64,000 bases of DNA from Patescibacteria group bacterium (GTDB lineage: Bacteria; Patescibacteriota; Patescibacteriia; JACRDY01), in assembly GCA_041650515.1 (NCBI GenBank), contig JBAZLA010000001.1:82710-146709 (forward strand). Reading direction: 5' to 3'. The stretch's first letter is position 1; every line of letters begins with the position of its first letter. This document shows, piece after piece, positions 7,621 to 60,456 of this stretch. A program made the translations under genes and the position numbers. The notes under the pieces are model-generated. The model was not told where the DNA came from and did no database searches. It saw nothing but the letters and a program-made list of their open reading frames with translations.

Positions 7621-7747
7621 GTCATTGCGAGGAGCTCCGACGTAAAGTCGGAGCGACGAAGCAATCTGGTAAATATCAGGAGATTGCTTCGTCACTCCAC
7701 TTCGTGGAGTTTACCCTGAGCGAAGCCGAAGGGCTCCTCGCAATGAC
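7621..7747. repeat. Family-B palindromic repeat (gtcattgcgaggagc ... gctcctcgcaatgac)
   Basis: Perfect 15-bp terminal inverted repeats enclose the internal hairpin gacgaagcaatct...agattgcttcgtc. It abuts the start codon of the next gene. Confidence 0.8.
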
Positions 7748-22355: not shown

Positions 22356-24899
22356 CTACTCCTCACAGGTTAAGACGATAGCATCAAGCCAAAAGTCAGC
22401 GGCTTGATCACCAAACTCAAATGTCAGTTTAGCCGATGCATCATCGCCTAGAACCGTGAAGTCGTGACTATAGGTTTGCCAGCCACTACTCAGATTGACG
22501 CTCTGCCAGAGACCAAGGCCTTGATAGGGGCTATGGTCTTGCTCCAGCGAGATAATCAACGGTAAGCTGTTGCTGGCCGCGGCAGCATAGCTGAGCTGAC
22601 ACTGCCAACCGACCTGGACCGACAAACTCTGTTTGAATTGACCTTGCCAAGCGTACTGATTAGCAGTGGCGTTTGATAGCCACCAGCTACAGTCGCCACT
22701 GAAAGCGCTGGAGCAATCCTGGCTGATTTCCACTGTATTGTTGTGGTCTTCTACTTGCCACGGATATAGGCCGCCGATCTCGGCACCGCCATTACCAAGC
22801 AGATTATTTGGGTCGTCCAGCGGCTCATCAATCACCGACAGATGTAAGCCGTCGAAATAATAAGTGCCGGTCTGACCACTGAGATAGAAGACCAACTTGG
22901 CGTTGGTGTCAGTCTGCGCTGGTGAAAAACGGTAACGATAGCGATGCCACTCTGGCATCAGGGCAAAAGTGTAGCCGCTATCCAGATTCTGCCCAGGTGA
23001 ATGGTTTTGGATCACCGTTACCTTGGGAGTCTGATAAGCGCTACCTTTAGCCCAGAAGATCAGTTCATAGACCTGACCAGCCTGGAGTGATTGCGTCTGG
23101 TAAAGCTGAACGCCGCTGATCGCGCCGCTCTTGCTAACCAGAACTTGGTAAGCCCGCCGACCATCAACGGCACCAATAGTGGTCACCTGACCAGTACCCG
23201 TACCCTGAGTACCGCCGGCGCTGCGGAAAGCCCAACTAGTTGCCCCACTCTCAAAGCTGGGATTACGCAACAAGTTGATAGTTGGACTAGGCACGATGCC
23301 GACTATCTCAAAGTAGAGGTTATCGAAGCTCAAATCGCCGACAGCGTCACCGTAGAAAAAACGGATGGCCGCCGTTGAATCACTGCGACGAGTGGTGAAG
23401 TACCCACTAAACTGTTGCCACTGCCGGTTGATTTGGAAAGTCTGTTCTGGCGCTAGAACGTCACCCAGGCTAATGATGTAACCGTAGTGATCGTAGGTCC
23501 GACGCGGGGTCAAGGCGATGGTAACGTTGCGCTCGGCCACACCGCTAGTCGTCCGAGCTTCGGCCTCCCAGTAGTAGATAGCATTGGCTTCGATCTGTAG
23601 CGGCCAATCCTCATGATTGGTAAGCTGGGCGTGATAACGCGAAACCTGGGTACCGAGTTTGGTGGTCCCACTACCAATAGCGCAGTTATCGGGTCGCAGA
23701 TCATCATTGCAACTAGCGGCCAAACGTGGACCGCCAGTATCACAATAGTAAGTCTGCCAACCCCAAGCGCCGCAGATATCGCTCCGGCCATTAAGTAACG
23801 CACCAGCGTAGAAATTCTCCCAGCCCCAATCGCGAGCTTGGATCCGATCAACGCAGGTGAGAGCAACCGGCGGAACTTCTTCCTGTTCCTCCATTTCGGC
23901 GCGAAAATCGCCAAAAAAGACTTCAATCGGACTAGCATAGCGCAGTTTGCCCAACTCGAAGTATTGGCAAGTACCACCATCAGGGCAAGCAACTTCATTG
24001 CTGATCGGTGGACCCAGATCAATTGGGCCGAAGAGACTAGGCGAGGCGGAATAGCAGGTATAAGGACTCGCTCCCTTATAGACGCACCAGAAACCTTCCT
24101 TAATTAGAAAGGCTTTTTTTTCTTCCGGGCTCCAAACTAAGGCTGTCTGGCCGTCAGTGCCGTAGTATAAGCCCTGCAGATCCTGGAGCCAAACCCCATA
24201 CCAATCGTGGACGTATTCTCCGCCCCCATTGTTAGATGGTAAGCCAAGTTTGGCATAACCACCAGCATCGAGGTAAACATCCAGAAAAGCTGGGGAGATT
24301 TCCTCATCCCAACCGTCTGGGAAGAAACCGGGGCCGTGGGGGGTATTCCCGGAGACGTAACGATGCGCACCATCGTCTTCGGAACAATCGCAGCCAGTAG
24401 GTACGCCGCCGTTTGGCACATCCACAAACGACGAGGGAATCGAATTGCCAGATACACTACCTTGCACCTGGTAGTGAATATGGGCCCCGGTTGATCGTCC
24501 CGTAGTGCCGCACGTCCCAAGGATGTATCCTTGCGGCACTTCTTGATCTATCACCACAAGCACATCTTCCAGATGAGCTACGCGGCTATAGAACCCATCG
24601 CTATGCTTCACTACTACGGTGTTTCCCCAGCCACTATTGTAGCTACCGTCGTTCGAAACGGCTACTACAGTCCCAGCTACCGAAGTCAGTACCGGGCGAC
24701 CGGGATCATTATTACTGTTAAAATCCCAACCATACTTCAAGACGTCTGAAGTATGGCCACCCTGATTGTTGCCTTGGGTTACCCACCAGGTTTCACTGAC
24801 TGAGAAAGGCAGTTTGAACGCGGGGGCCGCACTACCCTGGCTGACGCTTAGGAGTAATGCAACAGCCACCAACCACAAACTGATGCTGAACCGTTTCAT
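22356..24899 (-). CDS. Secreted M23-family peptidase with large C-terminal (carbohydrate-binding-like) extension
   Basis: Signal peptide, then an M23/LytM core (HSDGFYSRVAHL...GTTGRSTGAHIHYQV), then about 650 aa of Trp/Gly/Cys-rich extracellular sequence. GC is modestly above the core. Confidence 0.65.
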   Translation of the reverse strand: MKRFSISLWLVAVALLLSVSQGSAAPAFKLPFSVSETWWVTQGNNQGGHTSDVLKYGWDFNSNNDPGRPVLTSVAGTVVAVSNDGSYNSGWGNTVVVKHSDGFYSRVAHLEDVLVVIDQEVPQGYILGTCGTTGRSTGAHIHYQVQGSVSGNSIPSSFVDVPNGGVPTGCDCSEDDGAHRYVSGNTPHGPGFFPDGWDEEISPAFLDVYLDAGGYAKLGLPSNNGGGEYVHDWYGVWLQDLQGLYYGTDGQTALVWSPEEKKAFLIKEGFWCVYKGASPYTCYSASPSLFGPIDLGPPISNEVACPDGGTCQYFELGKLRYASPIEVFFGDFRAEMEEQEEVPPVALTCVDRIQARDWGWENFYAGALLNGRSDICGAWGWQTYYCDTGGPRLAASCNDDLRPDNCAIGSGTTKLGTQVSRYHAQLTNHEDWPLQIEANAIYYWEAEARTTSGVAERNVTIALTPRRTYDHYGYIISLGDVLAPEQTFQINRQWQQFSGYFTTRRSDSTAAIRFFYGDAVGDLSFDNLYFEIVGIVPSPTINLLRNPSFESGATSWAFRSAGGTQGTGTGQVTTIGAVDGRRAYQVLVSKSGAISGVQLYQTQSLQAGQVYELIFWAKGSAYQTPKVTVIQNHSPGQNLDSGYTFALMPEWHRYRYRFSPAQTDTNAKLVFYLSGQTGTYYFDGLHLSVIDEPLDDPNNLLGNGGAEIGGLYPWQVEDHNNTVEISQDCSSAFSGDCSWWLSNATANQYAWQGQFKQSLSVQVGWQCQLSYAAAASNSLPLIISLEQDHSPYQGLGLWQSVNLSSGWQTYSHDFTVLGDDASAKLTFEFGDQAADFWLDAIVLTCEE

Positions 24900-24990
24900 C
24901 TTCGTATCCTTTCCTGTTGGAGTTTGATGTGAATGAACTAATTTGGAGTATAAAGAAAGACCCCTTATCAGGGTCTAAAATAATTATGAA
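24897..24990. repeat. Leader repeat, copy 1 (5' region of the M23 peptidase gene)
   Basis: About 90% identical to 26305-26400. It includes the ATG, the AGGAAAGG ribosome-binding site, and a hairpin agaccc...gggtct. Confidence 0.7.
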
Positions 24991-25032
24991 AAATTATTAA
25001 ATTAAAAATTAAATATTATTTTTATTTGATTG

Positions 25033-26238
25033 TTAATTATCAAAAACAAACCAACAAAAAGAATACTTCTCGCCAACATCTATAAGTTGATTAGTATCAC
25101 GGTTAAAAAGAAAACTTTTTGGTTCACCTTGGTCATATTCTCTAAAAGTCAAAAAATCACCATCGGGCGAAAAAGATAAATCACGCAAACCCCATCGACT
25201 CTTATAAATTTCTTTTATATTTTCACCAGATAGATCAGAAATAAAAATAGCTTCGTTAATAATTTCATTATTTTCTTTTTGGTCACCAATAAAAATACTA
25301 TAAGCTAACAGATTTTCATCGCTGGAGATCGCAACATTAAAAGCACTATTATTAATAACCCTAATAAATTTCTTCAAATTTTTATCTAAAAAATAAATAC
25401 CTTTTTTGCTACCTGAATCAAGTCCATAGAAAAGGAACTGTCCATCTTTAAGCCATTGAACACTAGAGCCGGAAATATTTTTTTCAATCTGACCAGTTTT
25501 AGCTCTGATAATCTTAATCAACCCATAAGGATTAAGGGGACTGCCGCCTAGATCAAAGGCTAAATATTGACCATCGGGCGATTCTTTACCTATCACCCAT
25601 TCATCAATATATATATTATTATTTAATGGGCTGAAATAAATTTTATTTATATCTTCCAACTCAACTCTATCGAAATCAACCTTTAAATTAGCCTGATAAA
25701 TATCTGTGCCCCGTTCTATATCTTTATTATTCTTACGATAGCCAAATAATATTCGATTAGGGTATTTAACACTAACAACCTCAATAAATTCTACTCCTAA
25801 CAATTGATTAAGGTTAATCTCTTTGCTACCTCTGGGTCCAGTAGATGATCTAATTAGATAATAAATGTTATTTGCCCGCTTCTGAGCTTTCACTACCAGC
25901 CAATCTCCTGCGCTGTCTAACCAACCGATAATTCTCTCAATTCTAATTGCCGTATCGATCTCCGCCACCTCTGATGTATTATTCTCGGAATCGACTACAT
26001 ATAAACGGTCATTCTTTAAATAAGCCAATTTAAATCTTTTATCTTCTTTCAATCTTTTTTCTTCCAAAATATCAGAAAGATATAAATCATTGACACTGCT
26101 AGTATTGATAACATCGTCAACCACCGATTGATTAATATTGGTTGAATGGAGATAGCTAAACAGCCAATATAATAAAACCCCGCCGCAAACAATTGCAGCG
26201 ACTAAGGTGCTAAAGAATATTTTTTTGTTCTTATCCAT
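25033..26238 (-). CDS. Hypothetical membrane-anchored protein, probable beta-propeller (TolB/PD40-like repeats), AT-rich
   Basis: N-terminal transmembrane segment. It has repeated DG.YLAF / SPDGD.L.F-type motifs. GC is about 32%. Confidence 0.4.
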   Translation of the reverse strand: MDKNKKIFFSTLVAAIVCGGVLLYWLFSYLHSTNINQSVVDDVINTSSVNDLYLSDILEEKRLKEDKRFKLAYLKNDRLYVVDSENNTSEVAEIDTAIRIERIIGWLDSAGDWLVVKAQKRANNIYYLIRSSTGPRGSKEINLNQLLGVEFIEVVSVKYPNRILFGYRKNNKDIERGTDIYQANLKVDFDRVELEDINKIYFSPLNNNIYIDEWVIGKESPDGQYLAFDLGGSPLNPYGLIKIIRAKTGQIEKNISGSSVQWLKDGQFLFYGLDSGSKKGIYFLDKNLKKFIRVINNSAFNVAISSDENLLAYSIFIGDQKENNEIINEAIFISDLSGENIKEIYKSRWGLRDLSFSPDGDFLTFREYDQGEPKSFLFNRDTNQLIDVGEKYSFCWFVFDN

Positions 26239-26304: not shown

Positions 26305-26400
26305 TAAGACACTTTTCATCTTCGTACCCCTTCCTGTTGGAGTTTGATGTGAATGAACTATTTTGGAGTATAAAAAAAGACCTATTATCTGGGTCTAAAA
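26305..26400. repeat. Leader repeat, copy 2
   Basis: Duplicate of 24897-24990. It carries a vestigial ATG-AAA-AGT start followed by a stop. Confidence 0.65.
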
Positions 26401-26439
26401 AAATTGTTAAATTATTCTAAAGAAAAGATTAAGTTAGAT

Positions 26440-27305: not shown

Positions 27306-28994
27306 TTACATCTCCTCAACGGTCTCAATCCCTAGAAGCGCTAAGCCACTTTGAATGGTGCTGGCCACCTTATCAATCAAAACCAACCGGGCCGACATTA
27401 ATTTGGGCTGGGTTTGGTCAATTACCTTACAAGCGTGATAAAAATGGTTAAATTCTGAGGCTAAATTTAGCAAATAATTGGCAATTAGCGATGGCCGATA
27501 TTCATCGGCGGCTTTAGTGATAACATTGGAAAAACGGCTCAACACTTTAATTAACCGCCGTTCTTCAATGTTGGCTAACAGACTATAATCAACTTTGGCC
27601 ACTAATTTTTTATGACCAGACTTGCGGCTAATCGATCTAATCCGCGCATAAGTATATTGCAAATATGGCCCAGTATCACCTTCAAAATCAAGTACGGCGT
27701 CCCAATCAAATTTAATTGGCCGAGTATTGTCGACACTGAGCATCGCAAATTTGATCGCGCCAAAAGCCACCACCTCAGCCACTTTGGCCTTATTTTTTAA
27801 ACTAGCGTTGCGCTTATTAATCTCCGCCAAAACGCGTTTGATTGTTTCATTACGCAAATCTTCATAAACAATTACATTACCCAGGCGCGAAGCCATCTTA
27901 CCATCTTGGAGCGAAACCAAACCATGCGCCACGTGATAATTTCTATCCCAACCGGGATAGCCGAGCACGGCCATTGACTTAAACAGCTGGCGAAAATAGA
28001 ATTCCTGCTCCGAGCCAACCACAAAAAGCAACTTAGTAAAATTGGACACTTTCTTCCGACGTAGCTCAGCTAAGCCATAATCTTTGGTTTGATAGAGCGC
28101 TGTACCATCGGACTTAAGCAAAATAAAAACGCCCAAATCGTATTTATCCAGATCAATAACCCAAGCGCCCTGATCTTTTTTGAGTTTGCCGGCTTTAATC
28201 TGGGCTTGAACGTATTTCTTACCTGGCGCTTCACAAACACTCTCGGGGAAAAAATAATCCACCTGGCAATTTAGCTCTTTTTTAATCTCTTGCGAACCAG
28301 CATAGCTCTGGGCGCACAGCTTTTTCCAAATCTTAACCAATTTAGGGTCCCGCTGATCCAGCCGGCGATTGTACTCTTGGCACTCGGCTTCATATTCTGG
28401 CTTCTCCGCTACCTTTTGTGCAGCCTGGGCGTAGATTTCACCAGCCCATTTATTAAAACCGGCTTTGGGCACAGCGCCTTGGTAAAATTTCTCAAAATAC
28501 CATAGCCAACGCGCAATATTAATGCCCACATCGCCATAGTAACTATAAGTTTTGGTTTTATAGCCGACAAAAGCCAAAATCCGCCGGATTGATTCACCCA
28601 AAGCGGCATTACGCACATGACCAATATGGAAAGCCTTAAGTGAATTAGCCTGAAAAACATCCATCAGTACCGTACCGCGTGAGCCCTTAAAACTAACCGG
28701 ACCAGATAAAACTTGGGTGGTTATCTTTTCTTGATCAATAAAAAAATTAAGATACGGACCAACAGCCTGCACCTCCCGCACCAAACCCTGAGGCGACAAA
28801 CTAGCCACAATTTTTTCCCGCAACACTGCGGCTAGCTGAACAGGATTTTGTTTGGCTGCTTTAGCCAGCTCAAAACAAGCAAAAGAAAAATCGCCCATCT
28901 CAATCTGCGGCGGCTCACTCAGCTCAACCTCAATCCCCGGCCCGAGATTGGTCTGTAAAATTCGAATAATTTCGTCTCTAACTTTATGCAACAT
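27306..28994 (-). CDS. argS: Arginine--tRNA ligase
   Basis: HIGH motif (FHIGHVRNA), a class I core, and a C-terminal DALR anticodon-binding region. Confidence 0.9.
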   Translation of the reverse strand: MLHKVRDEIIRILQTNLGPGIEVELSEPPQIEMGDFSFACFELAKAAKQNPVQLAAVLREKIVASLSPQGLVREVQAVGPYLNFFIDQEKITTQVLSGPVSFKGSRGTVLMDVFQANSLKAFHIGHVRNAALGESIRRILAFVGYKTKTYSYYGDVGINIARWLWYFEKFYQGAVPKAGFNKWAGEIYAQAAQKVAEKPEYEAECQEYNRRLDQRDPKLVKIWKKLCAQSYAGSQEIKKELNCQVDYFFPESVCEAPGKKYVQAQIKAGKLKKDQGAWVIDLDKYDLGVFILLKSDGTALYQTKDYGLAELRRKKVSNFTKLLFVVGSEQEFYFRQLFKSMAVLGYPGWDRNYHVAHGLVSLQDGKMASRLGNVIVYEDLRNETIKRVLAEINKRNASLKNKAKVAEVVAFGAIKFAMLSVDNTRPIKFDWDAVLDFEGDTGPYLQYTYARIRSISRKSGHKKLVAKVDYSLLANIEERRLIKVLSRFSNVITKAADEYRPSLIANYLLNLASEFNHFYHACKVIDQTQPKLMSARLVLIDKVASTIQSGLALLGIETVEEM

Positions 28995-29047
28995 AATAGT
29001 TTAATCTTACTGTAATTTAGGCTAAAAATCAATTGTCTTCACCCTGT

Positions 29048-29200
29048 GTCATTGCGAGGAGCAAAGCGACGAAGCAATCTCCTGAATAATCCACCAGATT
29101 GCTTCGTCGCTCCGCCAGTTGGCGGAACTCGCTTGGGGCTGGCTCCTTATATTGTCATCCTGACCCCCTCGGCAAAGTTTATCCTGAACGCAGCGAAAGT
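29048..29200. repeat. Family-B composite repeat
   Basis: Left arm gtcattgcgaggagc with hairpin gacgaagcaatctcctgaataatccaccagattgcttcgtc, then a second module ttgtcatcctga... Confidence 0.7.
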
Positions 29201-29251
29201 ATAAAAAAAGTGGTCACGTCGACCACTGGTCCTCCAAATCCTCCTGCATTC

Positions 29252-30397
29252 CTAACCGATGTACGACAGCGTATGGCAGCTAGAACAAACCACGATTCGC
29301 CGCCAATCGACGTCGCCGCTCCGGAATGGCTGCAGCGTTTTCTGATCACACTGCTGACAGCGACCATCATAACTGAAGCCGTTAATGTCGTCCCGCGTCG
29401 CCGCAGACATTGGATCAGAAGCAAAAGTCACGTGGCAGTCAGCACACTCCGCCACTCGCCGAGGTCCTTCTTGGGTGATAATCACCCGGGTACGGGGGAA
29501 GTCACAGCCGCCCCAACACCGACACTTAATCGGAAACTCCCGGACACTCTGCAAGCCGTTAGTGGGTGGCTCGTCAGCTTCCTCGGGCTGATCAGTGTCC
29601 GGCTCCTCCGAATCTTCATCGGCCCAGGGACGAAACTTGTGACTACGCCAACAGGTGATCACCGGTCGACGACCTTGTTTGGTCGCCTCCTCACTGATGC
29701 CACCCTGACCGACCCGTTCACCACATTGAGGGCAACGATGGTTATGGGTCTGGCCAGAATCAGACATCGGCAAGGCCAACCAATCAATCAGCTCAACCGG
29801 GCGATCACCTTGCTTGCGGTAGATTTTGCCGCAACTACCGCAGACGACGACGTCACGCTCGCCCTGCTGAGTCTCAATCCGCCGGACCTTGTTGGCCCGA
29901 CTGTCCCAACTGTTGGGACCGTTACTGCAGTAAGGACACTCGTGCCGTGGTTCCCGGCTGGCGGCTGTGGCCAGACTATTCCAATCCGGCCGAGCGTCGG
30001 CTCTGCGGTAATCACGTTTACAACGACCACAGCGCCGAACCGGTTGGTAACCGGTTAACGTCATGGCATTGGCTTCGTGATTACCTTTCCAGTTGCCGCA
30101 GTAGGGGCAACTGTCACAGAACGGCCCATCGGTCTTGCCCAGCGGCAAGTCCTCAAGCCGTATACCTGCCGGCTTGTTAACCGGTGCCGAAGCGGCGAAC
30201 CGGCTAACCCGTGCCGACTCGCTGCGACGATCACCGTGAGCATGAGCCGGCCAAGCCTGGCCCGGGTAGTTTTTCCGCCAGAACGCCTGCATCTGACGCT
30301 TGCGTCCTGACTTCTGCGACCGCTGAACTTTCCAGCCACGCCGCTTATTACACCCCTTCTCGCTGTACCGGTTACACCGGTGTTTTTTGGATTTCAA
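29252..30397 (-). CDS. Cysteine-rich zinc-ribbon-repeat protein with basic N-terminus (GC-rich island)
   Basis: At least nine CxxC-type pairs at regular spacing (CDSCPYC, CGRC, CPYC, CGSCG, CPQCG, CADCH, CQQCD, CSSCH). Start is TTG, preceded by GAGAGGAGGAATC. GC is about 60% against a flank of about 42%. The antisense 319-aa ORF is compositionally implausible. Confidence 0.55.
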   Translation of the reverse strand: MKSKKHRCNRYSEKGCNKRRGWKVQRSQKSGRKRQMQAFWRKNYPGQAWPAHAHGDRRSESARVSRFAASAPVNKPAGIRLEDLPLGKTDGPFCDSCPYCGNWKGNHEANAMTLTGYQPVRRCGRCKRDYRRADARPDWNSLATAASREPRHECPYCSNGPNSWDSRANKVRRIETQQGERDVVVCGSCGKIYRKQGDRPVELIDWLALPMSDSGQTHNHRCPQCGERVGQGGISEEATKQGRRPVITCWRSHKFRPWADEDSEEPDTDQPEEADEPPTNGLQSVREFPIKCRCWGGCDFPRTRVIITQEGPRRVAECADCHVTFASDPMSAATRDDINGFSYDGRCQQCDQKTLQPFRSGDVDWRRIVVCSSCHTLSYIG

Positions 30398-30467
30398 GAT
30401 TCCTCCTCTCCGGCCTGGCCGGTGAAATTAGACAATAGGTTTACTCTTTCTTAACACAATCAAATCC

Positions 30468-30620
30468 AAAAAGCAAGAAAGCATACGACCCGGCAGGCCT
30501 AAACAAGAAAACAAAAAAACATACGCGCCTCCCCCGTAGGTCTTTGACCTTTTACGGGGTCGGCGCTAAACAAAAAACAAGATTTGTTTTCTTGTTTTCT
30601 TGTTTTCTTGCTTTTTTGAT
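30468..30620. repeat. Family-D element (catacg-hairpin units plus ttttcttg microsatellite)
   Basis: Two units aagcatacg.cc[hairpin]ctaaacaa.aaaac, then (ttttcttg)x4. Related to 61361-61530. Confidence 0.65.
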
Positions 30621-31186
30621 TATTCGCTCACCCGTTCTAAATAATCATTGGTCTCGGTATTGATCCGAATCAAATCGCCTTGTTTAACAAACAACGGGAC
30701 ATTAACGGTTAAGCCGGTTTCCACAACAGCTGGTTTAAGCACTTTGCCTTGAGCGGTGTCACCACGCGCCCCATCAACCGTATCGGTTACTTGGAGAACG
30801 ATTTTTTTGGGTATATCAATACTCACCGGCCGATCTTCAAAATATAAAACATCAACCTCAACACCTTCTTTTAGATAACCAACTTTTTCAGCGCTCACAT
30901 CCAAACCTAGATCAAACTGCTCATAGGTCTGGGTATTCATAAAATAAGCGGCATTTTCATCTTTGTATAGATAACTGGCTTTACCGCGCTCCAAATCAGC
31001 CTCTTCGGCCTTATCCGTGCCCTTAAAAGTTTTTTCCAAAACAATACCGGTGACCAAATTTTTAATTTTAAAACGCAAAATACTCCCACCGCGGCCCATA
31101 TGAACCTGCTGAGTGTAGATAACCACATAAGGCTGATTATCCACCTTCATCACGGTGCCCATTTTGATATCACTTATCTGAAGCAT
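30620..31186 (-). CDS. efp: Elongation factor P
   Basis: EF-P three-domain sequence (KMGTVMKV...GRGGSILRFK...). The ORF track extends it upstream to 31219. Confidence 0.85.
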   Translation of the reverse strand: MLQISDIKMGTVMKVDNQPYVVIYTQQVHMGRGGSILRFKIKNLVTGIVLEKTFKGTDKAEEADLERGKASYLYKDENAAYFMNTQTYEQFDLGLDVSAEKVGYLKEGVEVDVLYFEDRPVSIDIPKKIVLQVTDTVDGARGDTAQGKVLKPAVVETGLTVNVPLFVKQGDLIRINTETNDYLERVSE

Positions 31187-31222: not shown

Positions 31223-31594
31223 TTACTTTTTACTTTTGTCTATTTTATTATTTAAATTATTAATTTCTCGCCAAAGCATGGCGCCGATCTCTCCTGCTAA
31301 CTTACAGACTAAATCGTAATCACTATTCTTTAAATAGCCCTCAACTAAAGAAAAATGCAACAAATATTTTGATTCCTTAAGCGAACCGTAGGAGCTCTCT
31401 AAAAAATTTAAGCGAATTAACGGCCGGCGACGGGCATACCCTTCAATATAGTTGAGAATAACCGACAGGGCGGCCCGCCTTAATTGAGAAACCGACCCAA
31501 AGAGTTCACTTTTAGGAAATAGACTGCTCAAGCGATAAGCCGAATGAACGTATTTATCCATCTTGATCTTCAAATTTTCCTGATACTCATTCAT
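31223..31594 (-). CDS. Four-helix-bundle protein (TIGR02436 / bAvd-like)
   Basis: FG..SQLRRAA.SV..N..EGY.R and GYL...DYD signature. The ORF track extends it upstream (to 31717) across a lysine-rich repeat-encoded stretch that overlaps rpsR. Confidence 0.55.
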   Translation of the reverse strand: MNEYQENLKIKMDKYVHSAYRLSSLFPKSELFGSVSQLRRAALSVILNYIEGYARRRPLIRLNFLESSYGSLKESKYLLHFSLVEGYLKNSDYDLVCKLAGEIGAMLWREINNLNNKIDKSKK

Positions 31595-31632
31595 ATTGTT
31601 TTCTGGCTTTTTTGCTTTCTTGTTTTCTTGAT

Positions 31633-31896
31633 CTACCGGCTGGTAAATGGCAAGATACACATCACCCGAGCGCGCTTGATAGCCATCGCTAGCTTCCGCT
31701 GATGAGTGGCGCAACAACCGCTCCGACGCTGAGGGGCAATTTTACCATAAGAGGAAATAAACCGACGTAGTAACTGAGCATCTTTGTAATCAATATCAGT
31801 GTAAGTATTGAGACAAAAATAACATTCCTTCTTCTCCGGCGCTTTTTCCTGTCGTTTGTTTGATCGATTGTTTGATCTAGTATTTGGTCTAGGCAT
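31633..31896 (-). CDS. rpsR: 30S ribosomal protein S18
   Basis: CYFC...IDYKD..LLRRFIS..GKI..RR.SG.CA..QRKLA.AIKRAR. Confidence 0.8.
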   Translation of the reverse strand: MPRPNTRSNNRSNKRQEKAPEKKECYFCLNTYTDIDYKDAQLLRRFISSYGKIAPQRRSGCCATHQRKLAMAIKRARVMCILPFTSR

Positions 31897-33045: not shown

Positions 33046-33327
33046 AATATAATTTGATTATTAATTATCTAAACTTTTTATTAATAAGATCTAAAAAACT
33101 CCCCAGTGTTCTATGGGAAGCTAAAATAAGCCCTCAGAACACCTTTAATTTACTCGCATATTGCTGTAAATTTAGCCAAATTTGGCCAGTGGAAAAGGTA
33201 GGTTCAAGTTGAATAACCCTAGATTATCACACTCAAGCAGATTTTTCAAGGGTCCCGTAGCGACAATTTATGAATTGCCGCTACCTTTTGTTTTCTTGTT
33301 TTTTGGCTTTCTTGTTATAATACCCCC

Positions 33328-34854: not shown

Positions 34855-35298
34855 TCAGTCGGCGCGGACGTCTTCCCGGCCCGGGAAAAACTTGAGCTCC
34901 GAGGGCACAGAAAGTGTCGGCGTCACGATGGTGGTCATAAACCCAAACTGCCGGCTCTTGGCGATGTGCCGGGCGATGAAGTACATCATCGCCGAATTGA
35001 ACTGGCTGGCCAGTTCCGCCAGCTTGTCTTCCGGCACGGGTACTTCCTCGGTGTGGAGTTCGACCCAGACCATCGCCTGTTCGCCGTGGTCGCCGAGACT
35101 GACGATCGGCGGATCGACACAGATGTCTTCCGCCTTGCACGGCATTTCCACAACATCGTTGCCCTGATCGTCATCAACCATGGCGAAGATGTCGTTGGTC
35201 TCGATCAGCGTCCTGGCCAGGCCCCCCAGCTCATGGGGGCGGTGTACCAGACCGGTATCACGCGCCGCAATGCTGGACATACGAATTACGATACGCAT
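34855..35298 (-). CDS. Acidic hypothetical protein (147 aa) in a GC-rich island
   Basis: AAGGAGGAAACC-ATG. Plausible composition. The overlapping plus-strand 215-aa ORF is R/H-rich antisense noise. Confidence 0.5.
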   Translation of the reverse strand: MRIVIRMSSIAARDTGLVHRPHELGGLARTLIETNDIFAMVDDDQGNDVVEMPCKAEDICVDPPIVSLGDHGEQAMVWVELHTEEVPVPEDKLAELASQFNSAMMYFIARHIAKSRQFGFMTTIVTPTLSVPSELKFFPGREDVRAD

Positions 35299-42764: not shown

Positions 42765-43100
42765 ATGAATGCCGGTATTGAAAATCCGGAAATATATCTC
42801 GCGTTGTTGCGAGCTACGGCTAATGCGCAAATTCTATACAATCGGGCGGTCTTCTGCCTGATGCACCACGCCTGTAGCCACAGCCACCAACCAAAATTAG
42901 AAACTCCCATGATGGCTTTTGCCGATCTCTGGCAAACTGCCAACACTACGCTCCGGCGGCAAAAAGCTCGAGAGTTTCTACAAGCCGCCACCCGGCTCGA
43001 ACTCGGCTGGGTCTGGCCGGATCAACCGACCGAGGAAGAACCAACCGAGAGGCAACTGGCCGATGCTTTCGCCAATCTGCTTAAGCATCTCAATCATTAG
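42765..43100 (+). CDS. Hypothetical protein (111 aa), GC-rich island
   Basis: AAGGAGGTTTTAGTT-ATG, with a terminator gacccatccgggtc followed by a T8 run downstream. Confidence 0.5.
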   Translation: MNAGIENPEIYLALLRATANAQILYNRAVFCLMHHACSHSHQPKLETPMMAFADLWQTANTTLRRQKAREFLQAATRLELGWVWPDQPTEEEPTERQLADAFANLLKHLNH

Positions 43101-43293
43101 ACCCATCCGGGTCTTTTTTTATACCCCTACGAATTTTTATCATGTCATTGCGAGCGTAGCCCCCGACCCGTGTGTCGGGGGCGGAGCGAGTCGAAGGATA
43201 GTTTATAAAAAAGACCCGGAAGAAAGAGCCCCAATGGGTTTTCTCCGGGTGGCGAATCTTTACGATCCGCTAGTTTTCAGTTGTCCGTGTGCT

Positions 43294-43728
43294 TCAGCAG
43301 TTGAGCACGGTGACGATCCCCACGGAGGAGTTGAAGCCCAGGCTGGACAGGTAGCTTTCGTCCACGGCGGCGACTTCCTCACGGATTTCCTTCGAATTGA
43401 CGTCGTTCTCGTTGACGGCAATATCGTTGGAAACGCACTCCGTTCCTTGATCCATCGGCGCGACGTCGTTGTTCGCATCCTTCGACTGTGCGGCGGTGAT
43501 CACGTTGACCAGGGAAGCGGGCGGCGACACATCAACGGTCGCCGAGAGATTGGGCGCCGCGTAGTTCGCAGCCAACCCGAAGATAATCGCCTGATGGTTC
43601 GCAACGACGGCCGGAGTCTCATCGGTGGCCTCGTTCGCGACCTGAACCGGAGCGGCCTGCGCGACGGTCAGCCCGACCATCAGCACCGCCAAACAACACA
43701 ACGCAATGCACAAAAACAGTTTTCTCAT
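43294..43728 (-). CDS. Secreted hypothetical protein (signal peptide), GC-rich island
   Basis: AAAGGAGAAGAACCG-ATG and an N-terminal signal peptide (MRKLFLCIALCCLAVLMVGLTVAQA). Confidence 0.5.
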   Translation of the reverse strand: MRKLFLCIALCCLAVLMVGLTVAQAAPVQVANEATDETPAVVANHQAIIFGLAANYAAPNLSATVDVSPPASLVNVITAAQSKDANNDVAPMDQGTECVSNDIAVNENDVNSKEIREEVAAVDESYLSSLGFNSSVGIVTVLNC

Positions 43729-46919: not shown

Positions 46920-47023
46920 CAAAAAGAGCTAAACAGATTAATAATTAAATACTCGGGCATTGTCTCCGCCTTACCACTAGAAATGACCACAAATCTGGCC
47001 TTAAGCTTATCCAACTCGTCTAA

Positions 47024-47095
47024 CGTCCCCGATAGGAATTGAACCTATATCTAGGGCTTAGGAGTCCCTTGTTCTATCCGTTGAACTACGGGGAC
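47024..47095 (-). tRNA. tRNA-Arg (anticodon CCU)
   Basis: Acceptor gtccccg/cggggac. Anticodon loop cUCCUaa with one A:G mismatch at the stem base. T-arm ataggTTCAATTcctat. Confidence 0.75.
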
Positions 47096-47107
47096 ATCAG
47101 GCGAATT

Positions 47108-47151
47108 GGGCTTAGGAGTCCCTTGTTCTATCCGTTGAACTATTGGGGCAT
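47108..47151 (-). pseudogene. tRNA-Arg(CCU) 5'-half duplicate (fragment)
   Basis: Copies acceptor-5', D-arm and anticodon arm of the adjacent gene. Flanked by inverted ggcgaat/attcgcc. Confidence 0.7.
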
Positions 47152-50578: not shown

Positions 50579-50669
50579 CGTCATTGCGAGCGTAGCGAAG
50601 CAATCTCCTGAATAATCCACCAGATTGCTTCGTCGCCCCCCGATAAATCGGGGAGCTCCTCGCAATGAC
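50579..50669. repeat. Family-B repeat (gtcattgcgagcg...gctcctcgcaatgaca)
   Basis: Carries hairpin gacgaagcaatctcctgaataatccaccagattgcttcgtc, identical to copies at 29070 and 54310. Confidence 0.8.
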
Positions 50670-50732
50670 AATAACAACAGTTTAGCTCAAAATCTAGCGA
50701 AAATCAACTAAATATGCTAGGTTAAACTAAGT

Positions 50733-52409
50733 ATGCCTAAATGTTTAATCTGCCAATCTAACTTTACCATCGAGCCTGACGACCGGATTTTTTATCAAAA
50801 AATCAATGTACCCGAGCCGGTCGAGTGCCCAGCTTGCCGCCAGCAGCTGCGCCTTTGTTGGCGTTGCGAACGCAGCCTGCACTTCCGACCCTGCGACCTT
50901 TGTGGTAGACAGCATATGTCTAGCTATGGTGCTCACACTACCTTTCCGGTTTATTGCCTAGACTGTTGGTATGGCGACAGCTGGAATCAACTTCAAAACG
51001 GCCGCGATTTTGACTTCTCTCGCCCGTTTTTTGAACAATGGGGTGAACTCCAAAAAATATCAGCTCGACCGAGCCTTTTTATTACTCAAGGTACGGTTTT
51101 TAACAGCGACTATTGTAACGCCGTCACGGCGATTAAAAACTGCTACCTGGTTTTTAGCGCTTTTGAATGCGAAGATTGTTATTATTCCAGCTTTATTCGC
51201 GAATCGTATAATCTTTTTGATTGCACTGAGGTATATTCGTCTGAACGATGTTACGATTGCATCAATTGCGACCAATGTTATGGCGTAATTGCTAGCGATA
51301 ACTGCAAAGTCTGCCGCGACTCGGCTTTTCTCTGGGATTGCCACGGCTGCAGTGACTGTTTGTTGTGTACCAATCTACGTAATCAAAAATTCTGTATCAA
51401 TAACCAGCAACTAACCGAAGCCGACTATCGCGCCAAAAGAGCCCAGATTGATCTGCGGTCCAAAACAATCTATGACCAGAGCACTCAAAAATTAAAGGAG
51501 CTCAAAAAACAAGCGATTCATAAATACTGCCAAGGATTTAATAATATTAATTGCTCTGGCGATTATTTGACTCGCTGTAAAAATTCTAAATACGCCTATG
51601 ACTGCTTCGAAAATGAGGATTGCAAATACGTCACCCGGCTTAATAGCGGCAAAGATTGTTTTGATGTCGACCATTTTGGCTCAGATGGAATAGAGCTAGT
51701 CTACTATACTGCCAGTTCTGGCACCCGCTCGTTTAATAATAAGTTCTGCAACCAAGTCTGGAGCACTGTCCAGAATATGGAATACTGCGATATGTGTCAG
51801 AACGGCTCGCATGACTGTTTCGGCTGCGCCTGTCTAAATAAAAAGCAATATTGCATCCTCAATAAACAATACTCACCAGAAGAATACGCCAAGCTTAAAG
51901 AAAAAATAATCGCCCACATGCGCCAAACCCCGTATAACGGAACGGGGCAAGCCGGTGAATATGGCCGTTTTTTCCCGCCCCACCTTTCCCACGTTCCTTA
52001 TACTGATTCATTTGCGCAAGACTATTACCCACTAACTAAGGAAAAGGCGCTAAAACTTGGCTTTCGCTGGGAAGACGATGACTCTAAATACCAACCCGCT
52101 TCCTGCCCATTGCCAGATGATTTGAATGAAATCAAGAATGATATTACCAAAGAAATTTTAGTCTGCACCAACTGCGGCAAGAATTACAAAATCATTAGTC
52201 AGGAATTGGAGTTTTATAAAACCCTCAATCTGCCCCTACCCGACCAATGTTTTAACTGCCGACTACTGGTTCGTTTGGCTCGCAAAAATCCCCGCGTACT
52301 CTATGATCATACCTGTTCTAAATGCGGCAAGATGCTAAAAACTACTTATTCTCCAAACCGGCCAGAAAAAGTTTATTGTGAAGAGTGTTATCAGAAGGAA
52401 ATATATTAA
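50733..52409 (+). CDS. Cysteine-rich repeat protein, tandem paralog A (558 aa)
   Basis: N- and C-terminal zinc-ribbon pairs (CxxC...CxxC). Internal repeats have the form xCxxCxxSxxxx(N/D)C. C-terminus is VYCEECYQKEIY. Confidence 0.6.
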   Translation: MPKCLICQSNFTIEPDDRIFYQKINVPEPVECPACRQQLRLCWRCERSLHFRPCDLCGRQHMSSYGAHTTFPVYCLDCWYGDSWNQLQNGRDFDFSRPFFEQWGELQKISARPSLFITQGTVFNSDYCNAVTAIKNCYLVFSAFECEDCYYSSFIRESYNLFDCTEVYSSERCYDCINCDQCYGVIASDNCKVCRDSAFLWDCHGCSDCLLCTNLRNQKFCINNQQLTEADYRAKRAQIDLRSKTIYDQSTQKLKELKKQAIHKYCQGFNNINCSGDYLTRCKNSKYAYDCFENEDCKYVTRLNSGKDCFDVDHFGSDGIELVYYTASSGTRSFNNKFCNQVWSTVQNMEYCDMCQNGSHDCFGCACLNKKQYCILNKQYSPEEYAKLKEKIIAHMRQTPYNGTGQAGEYGRFFPPHLSHVPYTDSFAQDYYPLTKEKALKLGFRWEDDDSKYQPASCPLPDDLNEIKNDITKEILVCTNCGKNYKIISQELEFYKTLNLPLPDQCFNCRLLVRLARKNPRVLYDHTCSKCGKMLKTTYSPNRPEKVYCEECYQKEIY

Positions 52410-52553: not shown

Positions 52554-54212
52554 ATGCCCAATTGTAAAAACTGCCAACAAAATTTCACCATTACCGAGGC
52601 CGATCGGCAGTTTTATCGCAAAATGGAAGTGCCAGAACCAACTATGTGTTTTCCCTGCCGACTGCAAAACCTCATGGCCTATCGCAATGAGAGAGTTCTT
52701 TATCCAGCTATTTGTGGTCTGTGCAAAAAATCTATTCTCGCTGCTTATCCGCCGACCCATCCTACACCTATTTATTGCTATGAATGTTGGCACACGGATA
52801 AATGGGACTCTACCACTTATGGTCAAGATTATGATTCTGACCGATCATTTTTTGAGCAATATGAAAAACTGCAAAATACAGTACCGCCCTTTGCCTTATC
52901 GGTTTTTGGCAGTATCAACTCCGACTATACCAATTGCGCCTCTTGGAATAAAAACAGCTATTTGGTCTCCGGCGCTAATTATAACGAAGACGTACTGTAC
53001 GGCAACTACGTCAACTATGATAAATATTCTTTGGATATTTCTTTTACTCATAAATCTGAGCTTTGCTACGAGATTACCGACGGCGAAAACAATTACCATG
53101 TTCGTTTTGCTACTGATAGCTCTAATTGCTCCGACTGCTCCTTTATCCACGACTGCCGCAATTGCGTCGATTGTTTTTGTTGCACTAATCTGCGCAATGC
53201 TAAATATTGTATTCTCAATAAACCATATAATGAAGCAGACTACCGGAAAAAAATGGCAGCCATCGATCTGGGCAGCTACCAAACCGTGCAACAATATCTT
53301 GGGGAATTTAAACAGCTCAAACTGCTGGCAGTTTATCAATATTATCATGGCAGTAAAAACGAAAACTCAACCGGTGATTATTTTTACTATACCAAAGACT
53401 GCCATTATTGCTTCGACGCCACCGAAGTTGAGGGTTGCGCTTATTTACAATGGTTTCATAAAGCGCGAAATTGTTACGACATCTTGGCTTGGGGTTTTGG
53501 TGCGGAAAATTGCTATAGTGGAGTAGAAGTCGGTGACAACGTTACCTTTTTAAAATTTACCCGCACCTGCCGCACTGGCTCAAGTAATCTGGAATATTGC
53601 CAAAATTGCATCGGTTGCACCGATTGTTTTGGCTGTTACTGCATGCACAATGTCAAATATTGTATTTTAAATAAACAATATTTGGAAAAAGAATACCGAG
53701 AATTAAAAGAAAAAATTATTGCCAAAACGAAAAGTAGCGGCGAATACGGCGAGTTTTTTCCAACTAAATATTCTTATTTTGGCTATAATGAAACTATCGC
53801 CAATGACTATTTTCCTTTAACTCGCGAGGAAGTACTCAAACGCGGCTGGCACTGGCAGGATAAAATGCCCGGAATTTATGACAAAGGCACCTTAACCGCC
53901 GACCAATTACCAAACAATATTAAAGAAGTTGAGGATAATATCACTAAAGAGATTCTGGTTTGTGCTAGCTGTGGCAAAAATTACAAAATTACTCTAGCCG
54001 AATTAAAACTCTATAAACAGATTACTGTGCCCTTACCTCGGCAATGTTTTGATTGTCGGCATTTAGCTAGACTAAAACAAAGAAACCCCCGACAATTATG
54101 GCACCGCCAGTGCCTGCGTCCCGGCTGCAAAAATGAATTTGAAACCACTTATGCTCCCGATCGCTCGGAGAAAGTTTATTGTGAGGAGTGCTATCAAAAA
54201 GAGATCTACTGA
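52554..54212 (+). CDS. Cysteine-rich repeat protein, tandem paralog B (552 aa)
   Basis: Same architecture and termini (MPNCKNCQ... / ...VYCEECYQKEIY) as paralog A. Confidence 0.6.
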   Translation: MPNCKNCQQNFTITEADRQFYRKMEVPEPTMCFPCRLQNLMAYRNERVLYPAICGLCKKSILAAYPPTHPTPIYCYECWHTDKWDSTTYGQDYDSDRSFFEQYEKLQNTVPPFALSVFGSINSDYTNCASWNKNSYLVSGANYNEDVLYGNYVNYDKYSLDISFTHKSELCYEITDGENNYHVRFATDSSNCSDCSFIHDCRNCVDCFCCTNLRNAKYCILNKPYNEADYRKKMAAIDLGSYQTVQQYLGEFKQLKLLAVYQYYHGSKNENSTGDYFYYTKDCHYCFDATEVEGCAYLQWFHKARNCYDILAWGFGAENCYSGVEVGDNVTFLKFTRTCRTGSSNLEYCQNCIGCTDCFGCYCMHNVKYCILNKQYLEKEYRELKEKIIAKTKSSGEYGEFFPTKYSYFGYNETIANDYFPLTREEVLKRGWHWQDKMPGIYDKGTLTADQLPNNIKEVEDNITKEILVCASCGKNYKITLAELKLYKQITVPLPRQCFDCRHLARLKQRNPRQLWHRQCLRPGCKNEFETTYAPDRSEKVYCEECYQKEIY

Positions 54213-54286: not shown

Positions 54287-54385
54287 GTCATTGCGAGCCC
54301 GCCGCAGGCGGACGAAGCAATCTCCTGGGTAAACCACCAGATTGCTTCGTCGCTCCCGCCTAAAGGCGGTCGCTCCTCGCAATGA
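54287..54385. repeat. Family-B repeat after paralog B
   Basis: Preceded by a duplicated gene-end fragment atcagaaggaaatatattaaa. Carries hairpin gacgaagcaatctcctgggtaaaccaccagattgcttcgtc. Confidence 0.8.
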
Positions 54386-54507
54386 CGCTAAAAAACTATA
54401 CCCACCTGCCAAAACTGCCAACCAGCAGTTTTTTGATTTGACATTATTTCTAAAAAGGCTAAGCTTAAACATACTCTCAATAGTTCTTTACCAAGTAGGA
54501 GGGGTTT

Positions 54508-58311: not shown

Positions 58312-58383
58312 AAGGCCAGGAGGGGATTTGCACCCCTGCATAGAGGTTTTGCAGACCTCTGCCTTACTACTTGGCTACCTGGC
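58312..58383 (-). tRNA. tRNA-Cys (anticodon GCA)
   Basis: Acceptor ggccagg/cctggcc. Anticodon loop cUGCAaa. T-arm aggggTGCAAATcccct. Confidence 0.8.
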
Positions 58384-58413
58384 CGAAAAAGAAAAAAAAA
58401 TTTAAACAATGAT

Positions 58414-58600: not shown

Positions 58601-58793
58601 ACTGGGGTTTGGGGCGCCCGCCTAGACTCGACGTCTAGTCGAGGCTGGAATACGGCGCGCAGCCGAGCTCCGACCTTTTTTGATTACGCCAAGGAGCGAG
58701 GCGGGTAAAACGAGCTGGGGATGAACAACGAATCGCGCCTGATGAGTCCCAAAGCTTTTTTGTGTTACTTTTTTAGTTATAAAAAAGTAACAA
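58601..58793 (+). repeat. Family-A structured repeat, copy 2
   Basis: ggggtttggggcg...agtcccaaagc-T6 closing stem. Has ttttttgattacgcc and gcgggtaaaacgag blocks, and the terminal palindrome gttactttttta-gtta-taaaaaagtaac. Confidence 0.6.
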
Positions 58794-58902
58794 CCACTAT
58801 TTTTCCAAAAAAAAGAAGCAGGTGGGCTTCTGTCTAGTGTTGTATCCTCCTTGGAAAACACTAGCTAGAAGCTTCCTGCTTTTGGGGGTATATTGCAACC
58901 CC

Positions 58903-59718
58903 TTAGGCGTCATCCTCCTCCCACGGATACCGGTTGTCCGGTTCGGACTCGGGAACGTGTGGCCCCCGCCGTGGCGGTTCCTCGCATTGCTGCTCGGTCC
59001 GCCCGCGACGCCGGCGGCGGCGGATGATCAGCCAAACGACCAGCAACAGCACCGGGATGCCAATCCGCAGCGCCCAGGTCTTGATCGCCAGATTCCGCTG
59101 GTCCGATTTGGCCTTGGCGTGGCTGGCATTGATCATTTCCATCGCCGCTTGGATGTCAGCCGGCGTGGCTTCGACTGCGGCGTCCTCCTTGAGCCGACGG
59201 TTTTCGGCCAGCGCCGTTTCCAGCGCTGCAGCCTGATCAGCCTGCGCCTGAGCGAGCTGGCCAGCCGGGCTGTCGGGCAACGGATCCGCTTGGTCTTCCA
59301 AGCCCCGCGGATACCAGACCGACGCCGAAGCGCCGGAACTGGCACCCATCAGCTTGTAGCGACCAGAAGCGGACACGTTCCAGGTGGATTCACCGGGAGG
59401 CAATTCGGTCTTTTCTCCAGATCCCTGAAGGGCAAAGACCTTGCCCGAATGGACCGACACCGTCAGCTTGGGTGCCCGCAACGGGTCCATCCAGACGGTC
59501 CGCACGACTTCGTTTTTGGGCAAGCTGTACGGCCCGTTCCAGACGGGGTTTGGGGTTTGTGTTGCTGTCTGCTTCGCCGCGGAGTTGGTCTTGAGCGACT
59601 CGAGCTGCTTTTTGGCCAGCTCGATCAGCTTATCCAGACCAATCTTGGCTTCACCGGTCAGACCGCCGGCCGTCCGTTCGAGAAGCTCAATCTCCTCTTC
59701 GGACAGCGGCTGGCCCGC
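58903..59718 (-). CDS. Hypothetical protein with C-terminal transmembrane segment and poly-Arg tract; continuous in frame with the upstream gene across a TAG
   Basis: Open frame from the codon after TAG(59719-59721) to 58903. The post-stop sequence is coiled-coil-like (EEEIELLERTAGGLTGEAKIGLDKLIELAKKQLESL). The ORF track starts at a TTG (59523). GC-rich. Confidence 0.4.
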   Translation of the reverse strand, partial: AGQPLSEEEIELLERTAGGLTGEAKIGLDKLIELAKKQLESLKTNSAAKQTATQTPNPVWNGPYSLPKNEVVRTVWMDPLRAPKLTVSVHSGKVFALQGSGEKTELPPGESTWNVSASGRYKLMGASSGASASVWYPRGLEDQADPLPDSPAGQLAQAQADQAAALETALAENRRLKEDAAVEATPADIQAAMEMINASHAKAKSDQRNLAIKTWALRIGIPVLLLVVWLIIRRRRRRGRTEQQCEEPPRRGPHVPESEPDNRYPWEEDDA

Positions 59719-60414
59719 CTAGATCTTGGTGCGGATTGCCTCGAGCCGGACAATCTTCAGCGCCTGCTCGTAGTCGGCGTACTCCGCCGCGATCTCGGTT
59801 GCCACCGTCTGGGCCGGATTAACTTGATCAGTTGCCCACCAGAACGGGGTGTTGTGGCCACAGACCCGGACCCAAATCCCCGAAGGAAAAAGGCCGAGAA
59901 TCAGGATCACCAGGACCAACCGGACGCCGGACGCCGCGAGGCGTTTGGGCCACATGCCCGTGGGCAGGCCCCACGCACGGCCGATTGCCCAAAGGCAAAG
60001 TAGCACCAGAAACAGACCGACGATAAAGGTGACGCTGAAGTGGAGCGGGGTGAGGGTCAGCCCGATGATGATAATCAACGGGTAGACCAGGATGGTCGCG
60101 AGAGTCAGGGTCACCGCCCCCCAACCGCGCTTGGCGATTCGCGCCGCCAGATCGGCCAGGTAGAGGGAGATGCCTTTGACCTTGTCCTCGGTAAGACCGA
60201 GGAGTGCGCCCAGCTCCTTGACGACCTTGGTCACCTTTTCCTCGAGAAACAGGGCCAAAACACCGCCGACCAACCAGGCGAGTACTTTCTGCTTGCGGGT
60301 CATCGGCTTGTCGTCTTCGATTCCGAGCCAGGCGAGGAGCATGGTGAAAAACTGAACGTACGGATCTTTCGTTTCGCCGAGGGGATCGGCTGTGGGCTTG
60401 ATGTTCTCGGACAT
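59719..60414 (-). CDS. Polytopic membrane protein (231 aa), GC-rich operon
   Basis: GAAGGAGTACTGCC-ATG. About 5 transmembrane segments. Ends at an in-frame TAG. Confidence 0.5.
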   Translation of the reverse strand: MSENIKPTADPLGETKDPYVQFFTMLLAWLGIEDDKPMTRKQKVLAWLVGGVLALFLEEKVTKVVKELGALLGLTEDKVKGISLYLADLAARIAKRGWGAVTLTLATILVYPLIIIIGLTLTPLHFSVTFIVGLFLVLLCLWAIGRAWGLPTGMWPKRLAASGVRLVLVILILGLFPSGIWVRVCGHNTPFWWATDQVNPAQTVATEIAAEYADYEQALKIVRLEAIRTKI

Positions 60415-60456
60415 GGCAGTACTCCTTCGTTCGTTGCTATCGAGTTGATTCGTTGG

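Follow-up and report, generated by a model that had tools for sequence, protein, structure and literature searches.

Several four-cysteine (C4) zinc ribbons follow one another in the C-terminal region of bacterial type IA topoisomerases (Topo_C_ZnRpt / zf-C4_Topoisom), and the tandem ribbons of topoisomerase I bind single-stranded DNA (PMC9369019). Small zinc-finger proteins with CPxCG motifs occur in haloarchaea, Brz being an example (PMC2253796), and the brz-brb pair combines a zinc-finger protein with a small basic protein (PMC3184054). Here, we describe a 381-codon open reading frame (ORF) on the minus strand of a 64,000-nt stretch of contig JBAZLA010000001.1 from a Patescibacteria group bacterium (assembly GCA_041650515.1), a stretch referred to below as the window, whose numbering is used throughout. 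Its product already has a GenBank entry, as a hypothetical protein, in this Patescibacteria metagenome-assembled genome, and the gene is called the orphan below. An original prediction, made from the letters of the window, had proposed that a GC-rich island at this position encodes a basic zinc-ribbon-repeat protein of foreign origin. With slightly better than even confidence, we read the locus as a complete monocistronic cassette of accessory or imported origin, encoding a basic protein with five zinc ribbons that is likely a nucleic-acid binder.

The five-module protein and its closest counterparts

At least nine CxxC-type motifs, amounting to four to five zinc ribbons behind a strongly basic N-terminus, had been predicted for the protein, and all of these expectations agree with what was counted. 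Its 23 cysteines include nine overlapping CxxC motifs (residues 94/97/100, 123, 154, 186, 222, 318, 347 and 371), supplemented by C292-x-C294-x3-C298 and C249…H253. Shuffling the residues produced 1.3 CxxC motifs on average and 8 at most, so that nine were reached in 0 of 20,000 shuffles, and the remaining five reading frames contain 0-1 CxxC each. The cysteines fall into five modules (Table 1) sharing a common motif beyond the cysteines themselves, with the consensus C-P-x-C … T-x-x-G-x-R-x-V-x-x-C-x-x-C-(H/G)…R-P, in which C, C, G and C are invariant across the five-module alignment. The knuckles of each of the five pairs lie 20-29 residues apart with beta-hairpins predicted between them, as in a generic zinc ribbon, in which beta-strands are bracketed by two CxxC or CxxH knuckles ~15-30 residues apart, and the modules themselves are irregularly spaced at 53-72 residues. 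Net charge falls from +11 in residues 1-30 to +5 and then +2 in the next two blocks of 30 (+18 over residues 1-90). The internal five-fold module structure argues strongly for a real, folded, metal-binding protein. When module 2 was modeled with AlphaFold using the five modules as the alignment, a four-stranded beta structure was obtained (predicted local distance difference test (pLDDT) 65, predicted template modeling score (pTM) 0.54).

The protein would be cytoplasmic, with a highly basic and probably disordered N-terminal tail followed by five divergent tandem zinc-ribbon modules, and an acidic linker separates modules 3 and 4. Each module is expected to present a Cys4 or Cys3His site in which two knuckles surround a beta-hairpin with the invariant Gly at its turn, and would presumably bind one zinc ion. 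The likeliest activity of such a protein would be the binding of single-stranded DNA or RNA, where the basic tail could provide non-specific affinity and the ribbons, arranged as beads on a string, could make multivalent contacts. Judged from charge and fold class, nucleic-acid binding is a tentative proposal that falls a little short of an even call.

Among PDB sequences, the best match of the module profile was the TFIIS-type C-terminal ribbon of the RNA polymerase I subunit RPA12 (E = 0.007, which is sub-significant; E = 0.38 for the best stretch alone), and a pairwise hhalign alignment of the profile with this ribbon ran from end to end over 38 columns. The TFIIS/Rpb9/RPA12 ribbon (PF01096) resembles a single module in its C-P-x-C knuckle, its beta-hairpin of ~20 residues, its Gly near the turn and its second knuckle, x-V-x-x-C-x-x-C-G-x-x-[YF]-R. 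Transcript-cleavage factors of the TFIIS type are defined by an acidic RSADE hairpin tip, whereas the tips in the orphan lack RSADE and are basic or neutral (QQGERD, KQGRRP, QEGPRR). Moreover, where those proteins have one C-terminal ribbon, the orphan has five tandem copies and a basic tail, and neither the protein nor its single modules matched Pfam TFIIS_C. The likeness to RPA12 thus suggests a fold class, the classical zinc ribbon, and stops short of demonstrating homology or membership of a family.

In overall architecture, the closest analogue of the orphan's beads of ribbons is found in the tandem ribbons of topoisomerase I. However, the orphan has no catalytic domain, its module spacing is longer and irregular, and it additionally has a basic tail and an acidic linker. 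No match to Pfam zf-C4_Topoisom (PF01396) was found, nor was a Toprim or topoisomerase IA core detected within the 381 residues. Brz shares with the orphan a first knuckle of the CPxCG type (here CPYCG, CPQCG and CPYCS), and the brz-brb pair resembles it in joining a zinc finger to a very basic polypeptide, a combination that in two relatives (loci L020 and L026, see below) is divided between a pair of neighbouring small ORFs. The haloarchaeal proteins are archaeal single-domain micro-proteins; the orphan, in contrast, is bacterial, 381 residues long and built of five modules.

Two further families were approached by single modules. Module 3 scored 14.6 bits over the full profile of the GRF-like zinc ribbon (PF23549; gathering threshold 27), a score that is suggestive of shape only. 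The CxxC-x17-CxxC pattern of TIGR04272 describes a two-knuckle ribbon of generic type, frequent in proteins of archaea and of the candidate phyla radiation (CPR); module 5 reached 15.1 bits against a cut-off of 36, and the knuckles of the orphan are 20-29 rather than 17 residues apart. An HNH or His-Me finger nuclease was rejected, as no Pfam HNH match was obtained and the inter-knuckle segments in the five-module alignment are short and devoid of DH…N. TnpB-like and topoisomerase readings were likewise set aside for want of both catalytic motifs and Pfam matches. Elsewhere in the window, two adjacent paralogous Cys-rich proteins of ~555 aa (50733-52409 and 52554-54212, plus strand) are unrelated to the orphan; the first has a C-terminal CxxC-x17-CxxC domain scoring 26.4 bits against TIGR04272, also below the cut-off of 36.

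Table 1 Features of the orphan gene, its product and its flanks (window coordinates)
Feature	Coordinates	Strand	Remarks
Protein-coding ORF, 381 aa, TTG start	29252..30397	-	GenBank MFA5075892.1, 'hypothetical protein WC480_00515', Patescibacteria group bacterium
Shine-Dalgarno site, AGGAGG	30402..30407	-	4 nt 5' of TTG (30397); read from sequence
Intrinsic-terminator-like site	29199..29227	-	8-bp stem (AGTGGTCGACGTGACCACT) and T7; starts 25 nt past the stop codon
Strongly basic N-terminal tail	30218..30397	-	Residues 1-60, net +16; H6, C8, C16; predicted helix 30-43
Module 1	30020..30118	-	Residues 94-126; C94/C97/C100 … C123/C126; CPYCG knuckle
Module 2	29831..29938	-	Residues 154-189; C154/C157 … C186/C189; best predicted, four beta-strands
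Module 3	29639..29734	-	Residues 222-253; C222/C225 … C249/H253; CCCH variant
Acidic linker	29549..29629	-	Residues 257-283, ADEDSEEPDTDQPEEADEPP…
Module 4	29432..29524	-	Residues 292-322; C292/C294/C298 … C318/C321-H322
Module 5	29273..29359	-	Residues 347-375; C347/C350 … C371/C374-H375
Antisense shadow ORF, 319 aa	29099..30058	+	Codon-on-codon opposite the gene (computed from coordinates)
Left flank: palindromic MITE-like intergenic repeat	29040..29151		…GCGACGAAGCAATCT…AGATTGCTTCGTCGC…; at least 4 copies in the window
Right flank: composite intergenic element	30476..30626		Long hairpin (30525-30566) and 8-nt tandem repeats of CTTGTTTT

Gene cassette and GC-rich island

The minus-strand ORF and its TTG start were chosen alike by the JGI, NCBI PGAP, ENA and Logan gene calls. 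Without a stop for 391 codons, the frame is longer than the 99.9th percentile (344 codons) found when the island was put through 3000 first-order Markov shuffles, for which the mean was 159 and the maximum 403 codons; ORF length by itself is only moderately strong evidence for a gene. The AGGAGG ribosome-binding site that had been predicted ahead of the TTG codon is present, and the CxxC pattern, the Shine-Dalgarno (SD) site with its start codon and the terminator beyond the stop all fall on the minus strand, as expected of the coding strand. At 30365-30383, 12 nt downstream of the start codon, the mRNA strand (CACCGGTGTAACCGGTAC) can form a perfect hairpin.

According to the original prediction, conserved homologues of the plus-strand ORF would have pointed to the opposite strand as the coding one. 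This ORF was rejected as a real gene: it yielded no homologues and no Pfam match, has neither CxxC motifs nor an SD site, and starts inside the flanking repeat. When two frames lie codon-on-codon in antisense, a scarcity of TTA, CTA and TCA codons in a GC-rich gene is enough to keep the other frame open. Overall, we consider it very probable that the orphan is a real gene. It is probably monocistronic because efp, the upstream gene, appears to have a terminator of its own: a long, perfect hairpin reads from 30566 to 30525 and is followed by a T-run on the minus strand, which together form the probable efp terminator (efp ends at 30620). SD site, TTG codon, 381 codons and intrinsic terminator make up a complete cassette between efp and argS, from which the protein could be expressed.

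A GC jump over roughly 1.2 kb had been predicted around the gene and was recovered both in 300-nt windows, where GC is 0.53-0.60 over ~29150-30500 and 0.42-0.46 on either side, and by segmentation, which delimited an island of 1250 nt at 29211-30460 with 57.7% GC (whole-window mean, 44.0%). These limits match the single minus-strand cassette of SD site, ORF and terminator. Within the window, the tetranucleotide correlation between island and core genes is 0.26-0.38, compared with 0.68-0.86 among core genes, so that the island is atypical relative to the core genes in both base composition and oligonucleotide signature.

The island is not an assembly artifact. It is 100% identical in an independent ENA k141 assembly (locus L016), whose 472-kb contig runs across both island junctions, and it forms a 1518-bp contig of its own in the Logan assembly of SRR8542065 (L028, corresponding to window positions 29097-30614), which ends in both flanking repeats. 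With identical sequence in three assemblies and both junctions crossed by the k141 contig, a chimera was ruled out. Short-read Logan contigs break within the palindromic left-flank repeat, which resembles a miniature inverted-repeat transposable element (MITE).

Origin, flanking repeats and the GC-rich gene class

Searches for homologues of the orphan returned only the protein itself, both among 5.8 billion clusters and in an exhaustive phmmer search of 1.84 billion representatives. No match was found in phages and plasmids (tblastn) or in viral contigs (scan), and PADLOC gave none. On the same strand, the gene order is rpsF, ssb, rpsR, a 23S-IVS-protein gene, efp, the orphan and argS, and no mobile-element or defence gene was found among the neighbours. 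The argS product is named Patescibacteria ArgRS by NCBI. This ArgRS (27306-28994, minus strand) is archaeal-like: beyond its own small clade (54-61% identity), its best matches are ~47-50% identical and mostly from DPANN archaea, including Aenigmatarchaeota, Micrarchaeota and Woesearchaeota.

The nearest relatives by ArgRS are only 54-61% identical, and six of their loci were compared. In all six, tyrS rather than efp lies upstream of argS, and no homologue of the orphan was found in any of them, with the limit that synteny differs and none of the loci is a strictly orthologous empty site. When GTDB genomes and JGI metagenomes were scanned with ArgRS patterns, only relatives of at most 40% identity came up. 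The original prediction had noted that a GC excursion shared by all orthologous loci would point to an ancestral island; the comparison did not bear this out, although these relatives are too distant to offer a true empty site. One of the relatives (L020) also has islands of 60-63% GC with membrane orphans at 1149-2269.

Within the window, GC-rich genes and core genes differ in their translation signals. An SD-like motif precedes 7/9 GC-rich genes and 5/36 core ORFs (Fisher p = 5e-4); the motifs of core genes are mostly 4-mers, and several of those in GC-rich genes are 5-6-mers. Most of the GC-rich genes (52-64% GC) have AGGAGG, GGAGG or AGGAG at proper spacing, and almost none of them belongs to a Pfam family; the core genes, at ~42-45% GC, mostly have no SD motif. 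Further members of the GC-rich class lie at 34855-35298, 43294-43728, 59719-60414, 60457-61110 and 22356-24899, all on the minus strand. The orphan's atypical GC, tetranucleotides and SD site support its membership of this accessory class, and import is the simplest explanation for them. The cassette would belong to a compositionally distinct set of genes that are GC-rich, SD-bearing and without family assignment, and most likely reached its repeat-rich spacer between genes through horizontal transfer or recombination, not by inheritance as ancestral core. The predicted foreign origin is thus upheld in part: composition, tetranucleotides, the SD site and absence from the six relatives speak for it, but no donor, phage, plasmid or mobility gene was found. 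We judge a foreign or accessory origin to be fairly likely.

Repeats on both sides of the island had also been predicted, and they are present. However, they belong to a different family on each side and are ordinary multi-copy intergenic repeats, not matched island ends. Copies of the palindromic MITE-like family lie at 29065-29151, 50596-50677, 54311-54394 and 7637-7670, all in intergenic spacers. The composite right-flank element has a second copy at ~61340-61530, and in both places a GC-rich island lies immediately to its left. Runs of its 8-nt tandem repeats (CTTGTTTT/CTTGCTTT) lie at 30582-30626, 31586-31638, 33286-33314, 57081-57141 and 61423-61467, several at gene ends and one inside polA.

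Other parts of the window have structures of their own. The largest GC-rich island (58801-61130, 59% GC) adjoins tRNA-Cys (58313-58384), lies between 61-nt direct repeats that are 80% identical and contain a palindrome each (58734-58794 / 62241-62301), and codes for orphans that resemble membrane proteins and have SD sites; this island may be an element that has integrated. A 44-nt stretch that overlaps tRNA-Arg(CCT) (47023-47096) is present in two copies (47054-47097 and 47108-47151) set 54 nt apart with 93% identity, and could reflect the partial duplication of a tRNA that site-specific integration leaves behind. Direct repeats of 119 nt (24894-25012 / 26314-26432, 85% identical) bracket a very AT-rich (~30% GC) 401-aa ORF at 25033-26238, which has no Pfam family and represents the opposite compositional extreme from the GC-rich orphan.

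Alternative explanations and biological meaning

Several results weigh against reading the locus as an imported cassette for a nucleic-acid-binding zinc-ribbon protein. At the level of the gene, the SD-to-start spacing of 4 nt is short, no promoter was recognised for the orphan, the hairpin at 30365-30383 inside the 5' end of the ORF is terminator-like on the plus strand, and codon-position composition does not tell the two strands apart; codon-position GC is flat (0.60/0.54/0.62), compared with a third-position GC of 0.74-0.79 in the other GC-rich genes here. The total absence of homologues means that evolution offers no evidence of purifying selection. For the protein, the AlphaFold model of the full chain is poor (pLDDT 42), although beta-hairpins still appear in module 2, a Foldseek search of the module-2 model against PDB gave a best E of 0.7, and searches of Pfam, NCBIfam, PHROGs and PDB with the whole protein and single modules returned only sub-threshold generic zinc-ribbon matches (HypA, Zn_ribbon_Nudix, SprT ribbon, GRF-like, Lar and TIGR04272, all far under curated cut-offs). 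Zinc ribbons also serve protein-protein contacts, and the fold does not imply nucleic-acid binding. Finally, the island showed neither marks of mobility (integrase or transposase, tRNA target, flanking direct repeats) nor a donor.

The gene could be native to its lineage and very fast-evolving, a small zinc-ribbon gene upstream of argS having expanded to five ribbons and become fused to a basic region. In the relatives, the 1.0-1.25-kb tyrS-argS spacer does contain small ORFs with a single zinc ribbon on the same strand (L020 4956-5360, L021 2803-3129 and L026 493-714; those of L020 and L021 are not called as genes). In L020 (4956-5892) and L026 (493-1350), the zinc-ribbon ORF is followed by a hyperbasic ORF of ~100-120 aa, the two hyperbasic ORFs being homologous to one another (E ~2e-5), and the spacers are locally GC-rich (0.52-0.66 in L020, 0.54-0.55 in L025 and 0.51-0.54 in L026). 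This pairing recalls the ribbons and basic tail of the orphan. Positional homology was probed with a hidden Markov model built from the orphan's five modules only and run against 4609 six-frame segments of all the loci compared, in which the L021 ORF ranked as the best non-self match. However, its E-value was 0.065, the L020 and L026 ORFs were not recovered, and reciprocal phmmer searches from the three relatives' ORFs gave nothing significant (best to the orphan, E = 0.25). The relatives' hyperbasic ORFs did not match the basic tail of the orphan either, and domain order and upstream neighbour (efp here, tyrS there) differ, which leaves a native origin rather unlikely. Alternatively, the ORF may encode no functional protein and simply be inserted or decaying GC-rich DNA that is open by chance in two antisense frames, which would be consistent with orphan status among 1.84 billion representatives, the flat codon-position GC, the long open frame opposite and the fact that long open runs are not rare at 58% GC. 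Against this stand the number of CxxC motifs, the pairing into five modules and the conserved non-Cys positions, which go beyond chance, and the correct placement of SD site, start and terminator on one strand; furthermore, a recently decayed gene would still have homologues. We regard a non-functional ORF as distinctly unlikely.

A GC-rich island in an AT-rich genome is a classic sign of non-coding RNA (ncRNA), and a large structured ncRNA with an incidental ORF was considered for the same DNA. The minus strand of the island, in 600-nt halves, gave folding z-scores of -4.9 and -6.25, and many 200-nt windows gave -3 to -6, with the minus strand stronger than the plus strand. In a control on 600-nt segments, rpoB, rpoC, argS, polA and another core gene ranged from -1.6 to +1.8, whereas nearly all segments of GC-rich genes fell between -2.3 and -5.8 (one of the ten tested was near 0), among them an M23-peptidase/CBM gene with clear Pfam domains; the orphan scored -4.6 and -5.3 in the same control. 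The GC-rich minus-strand segments in this comparison came from 22356-24899, 29230-30430, 42900-43500 and 58850-60050. The signal characterises GC-rich genes as a class and is no evidence for ncRNA here. A search of 28900-30700 against Rfam 15 gave nothing at the gathering threshold and only chance-level matches at E up to 1, and an ncRNA would leave the CxxC periodicity unexplained; the ncRNA was rejected as extremely improbable. The gene could also be real but serve another purpose: its product might buffer zinc, act as a zinc-dependent adaptor between proteins or, carried by a mobile element, counter defence or interact with the host, for instance as a protein resembling the Lar restriction-alleviation protein (TIGR03655). 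Single modules show weak sub-threshold likeness to Lar (module 2, 13.3 bits; cut-off 39.6), ECs_2282 CxxC, HypA and Prok-RING, the orphan sits in the accessory SD-bearing GC-rich class, and its acidic linker could mimic DNA. However, all of these scores lie far under the curated cut-offs, neither PADLOC nor PHROGs gave a match, the neighbourhood is free of mobile-element and defence genes, and a net charge of +18 over residues 1-90 is seen more typically in proteins that bind nucleic acid, so that we hold such a role to be very improbable.

The imported or accessory five-ribbon cassette is the reading that we prefer, and as such the finding is modest: a singleton hypothetical protein whose familiar fold leaves its function a matter of guesswork. 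In a bolder and quite improbable version, the orphan would be one of a hidden, fast-turnover pool of accessory genes in a CPR lineage, imported from hosts or mobile elements. If this were true, GC-rich genes with their own SD sites and highly structured mRNAs would be found in a genome whose core is mostly SD-less, the five-ribbon protein would represent a new multivalent nucleic-acid-targeting class, acting for example on host or phage DNA or RNA, and a variable slot for a zinc-ribbon plus hyperbasic protein would exist upstream of argS across the lineage. As a clean, true singleton among 1.84 billion cluster representatives, the orphan is useful for asking where CPR orphan genes come from. 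The window also displays a two-class pattern, in which core genes have ~43% GC, mostly no SD site and folding z-scores near 0, and accessory genes have 52-64% GC, a strong SD site and z-scores of -2 to -6; if it holds genome-wide, this pattern would bear on gene flow and translation initiation in Patescibacteria.

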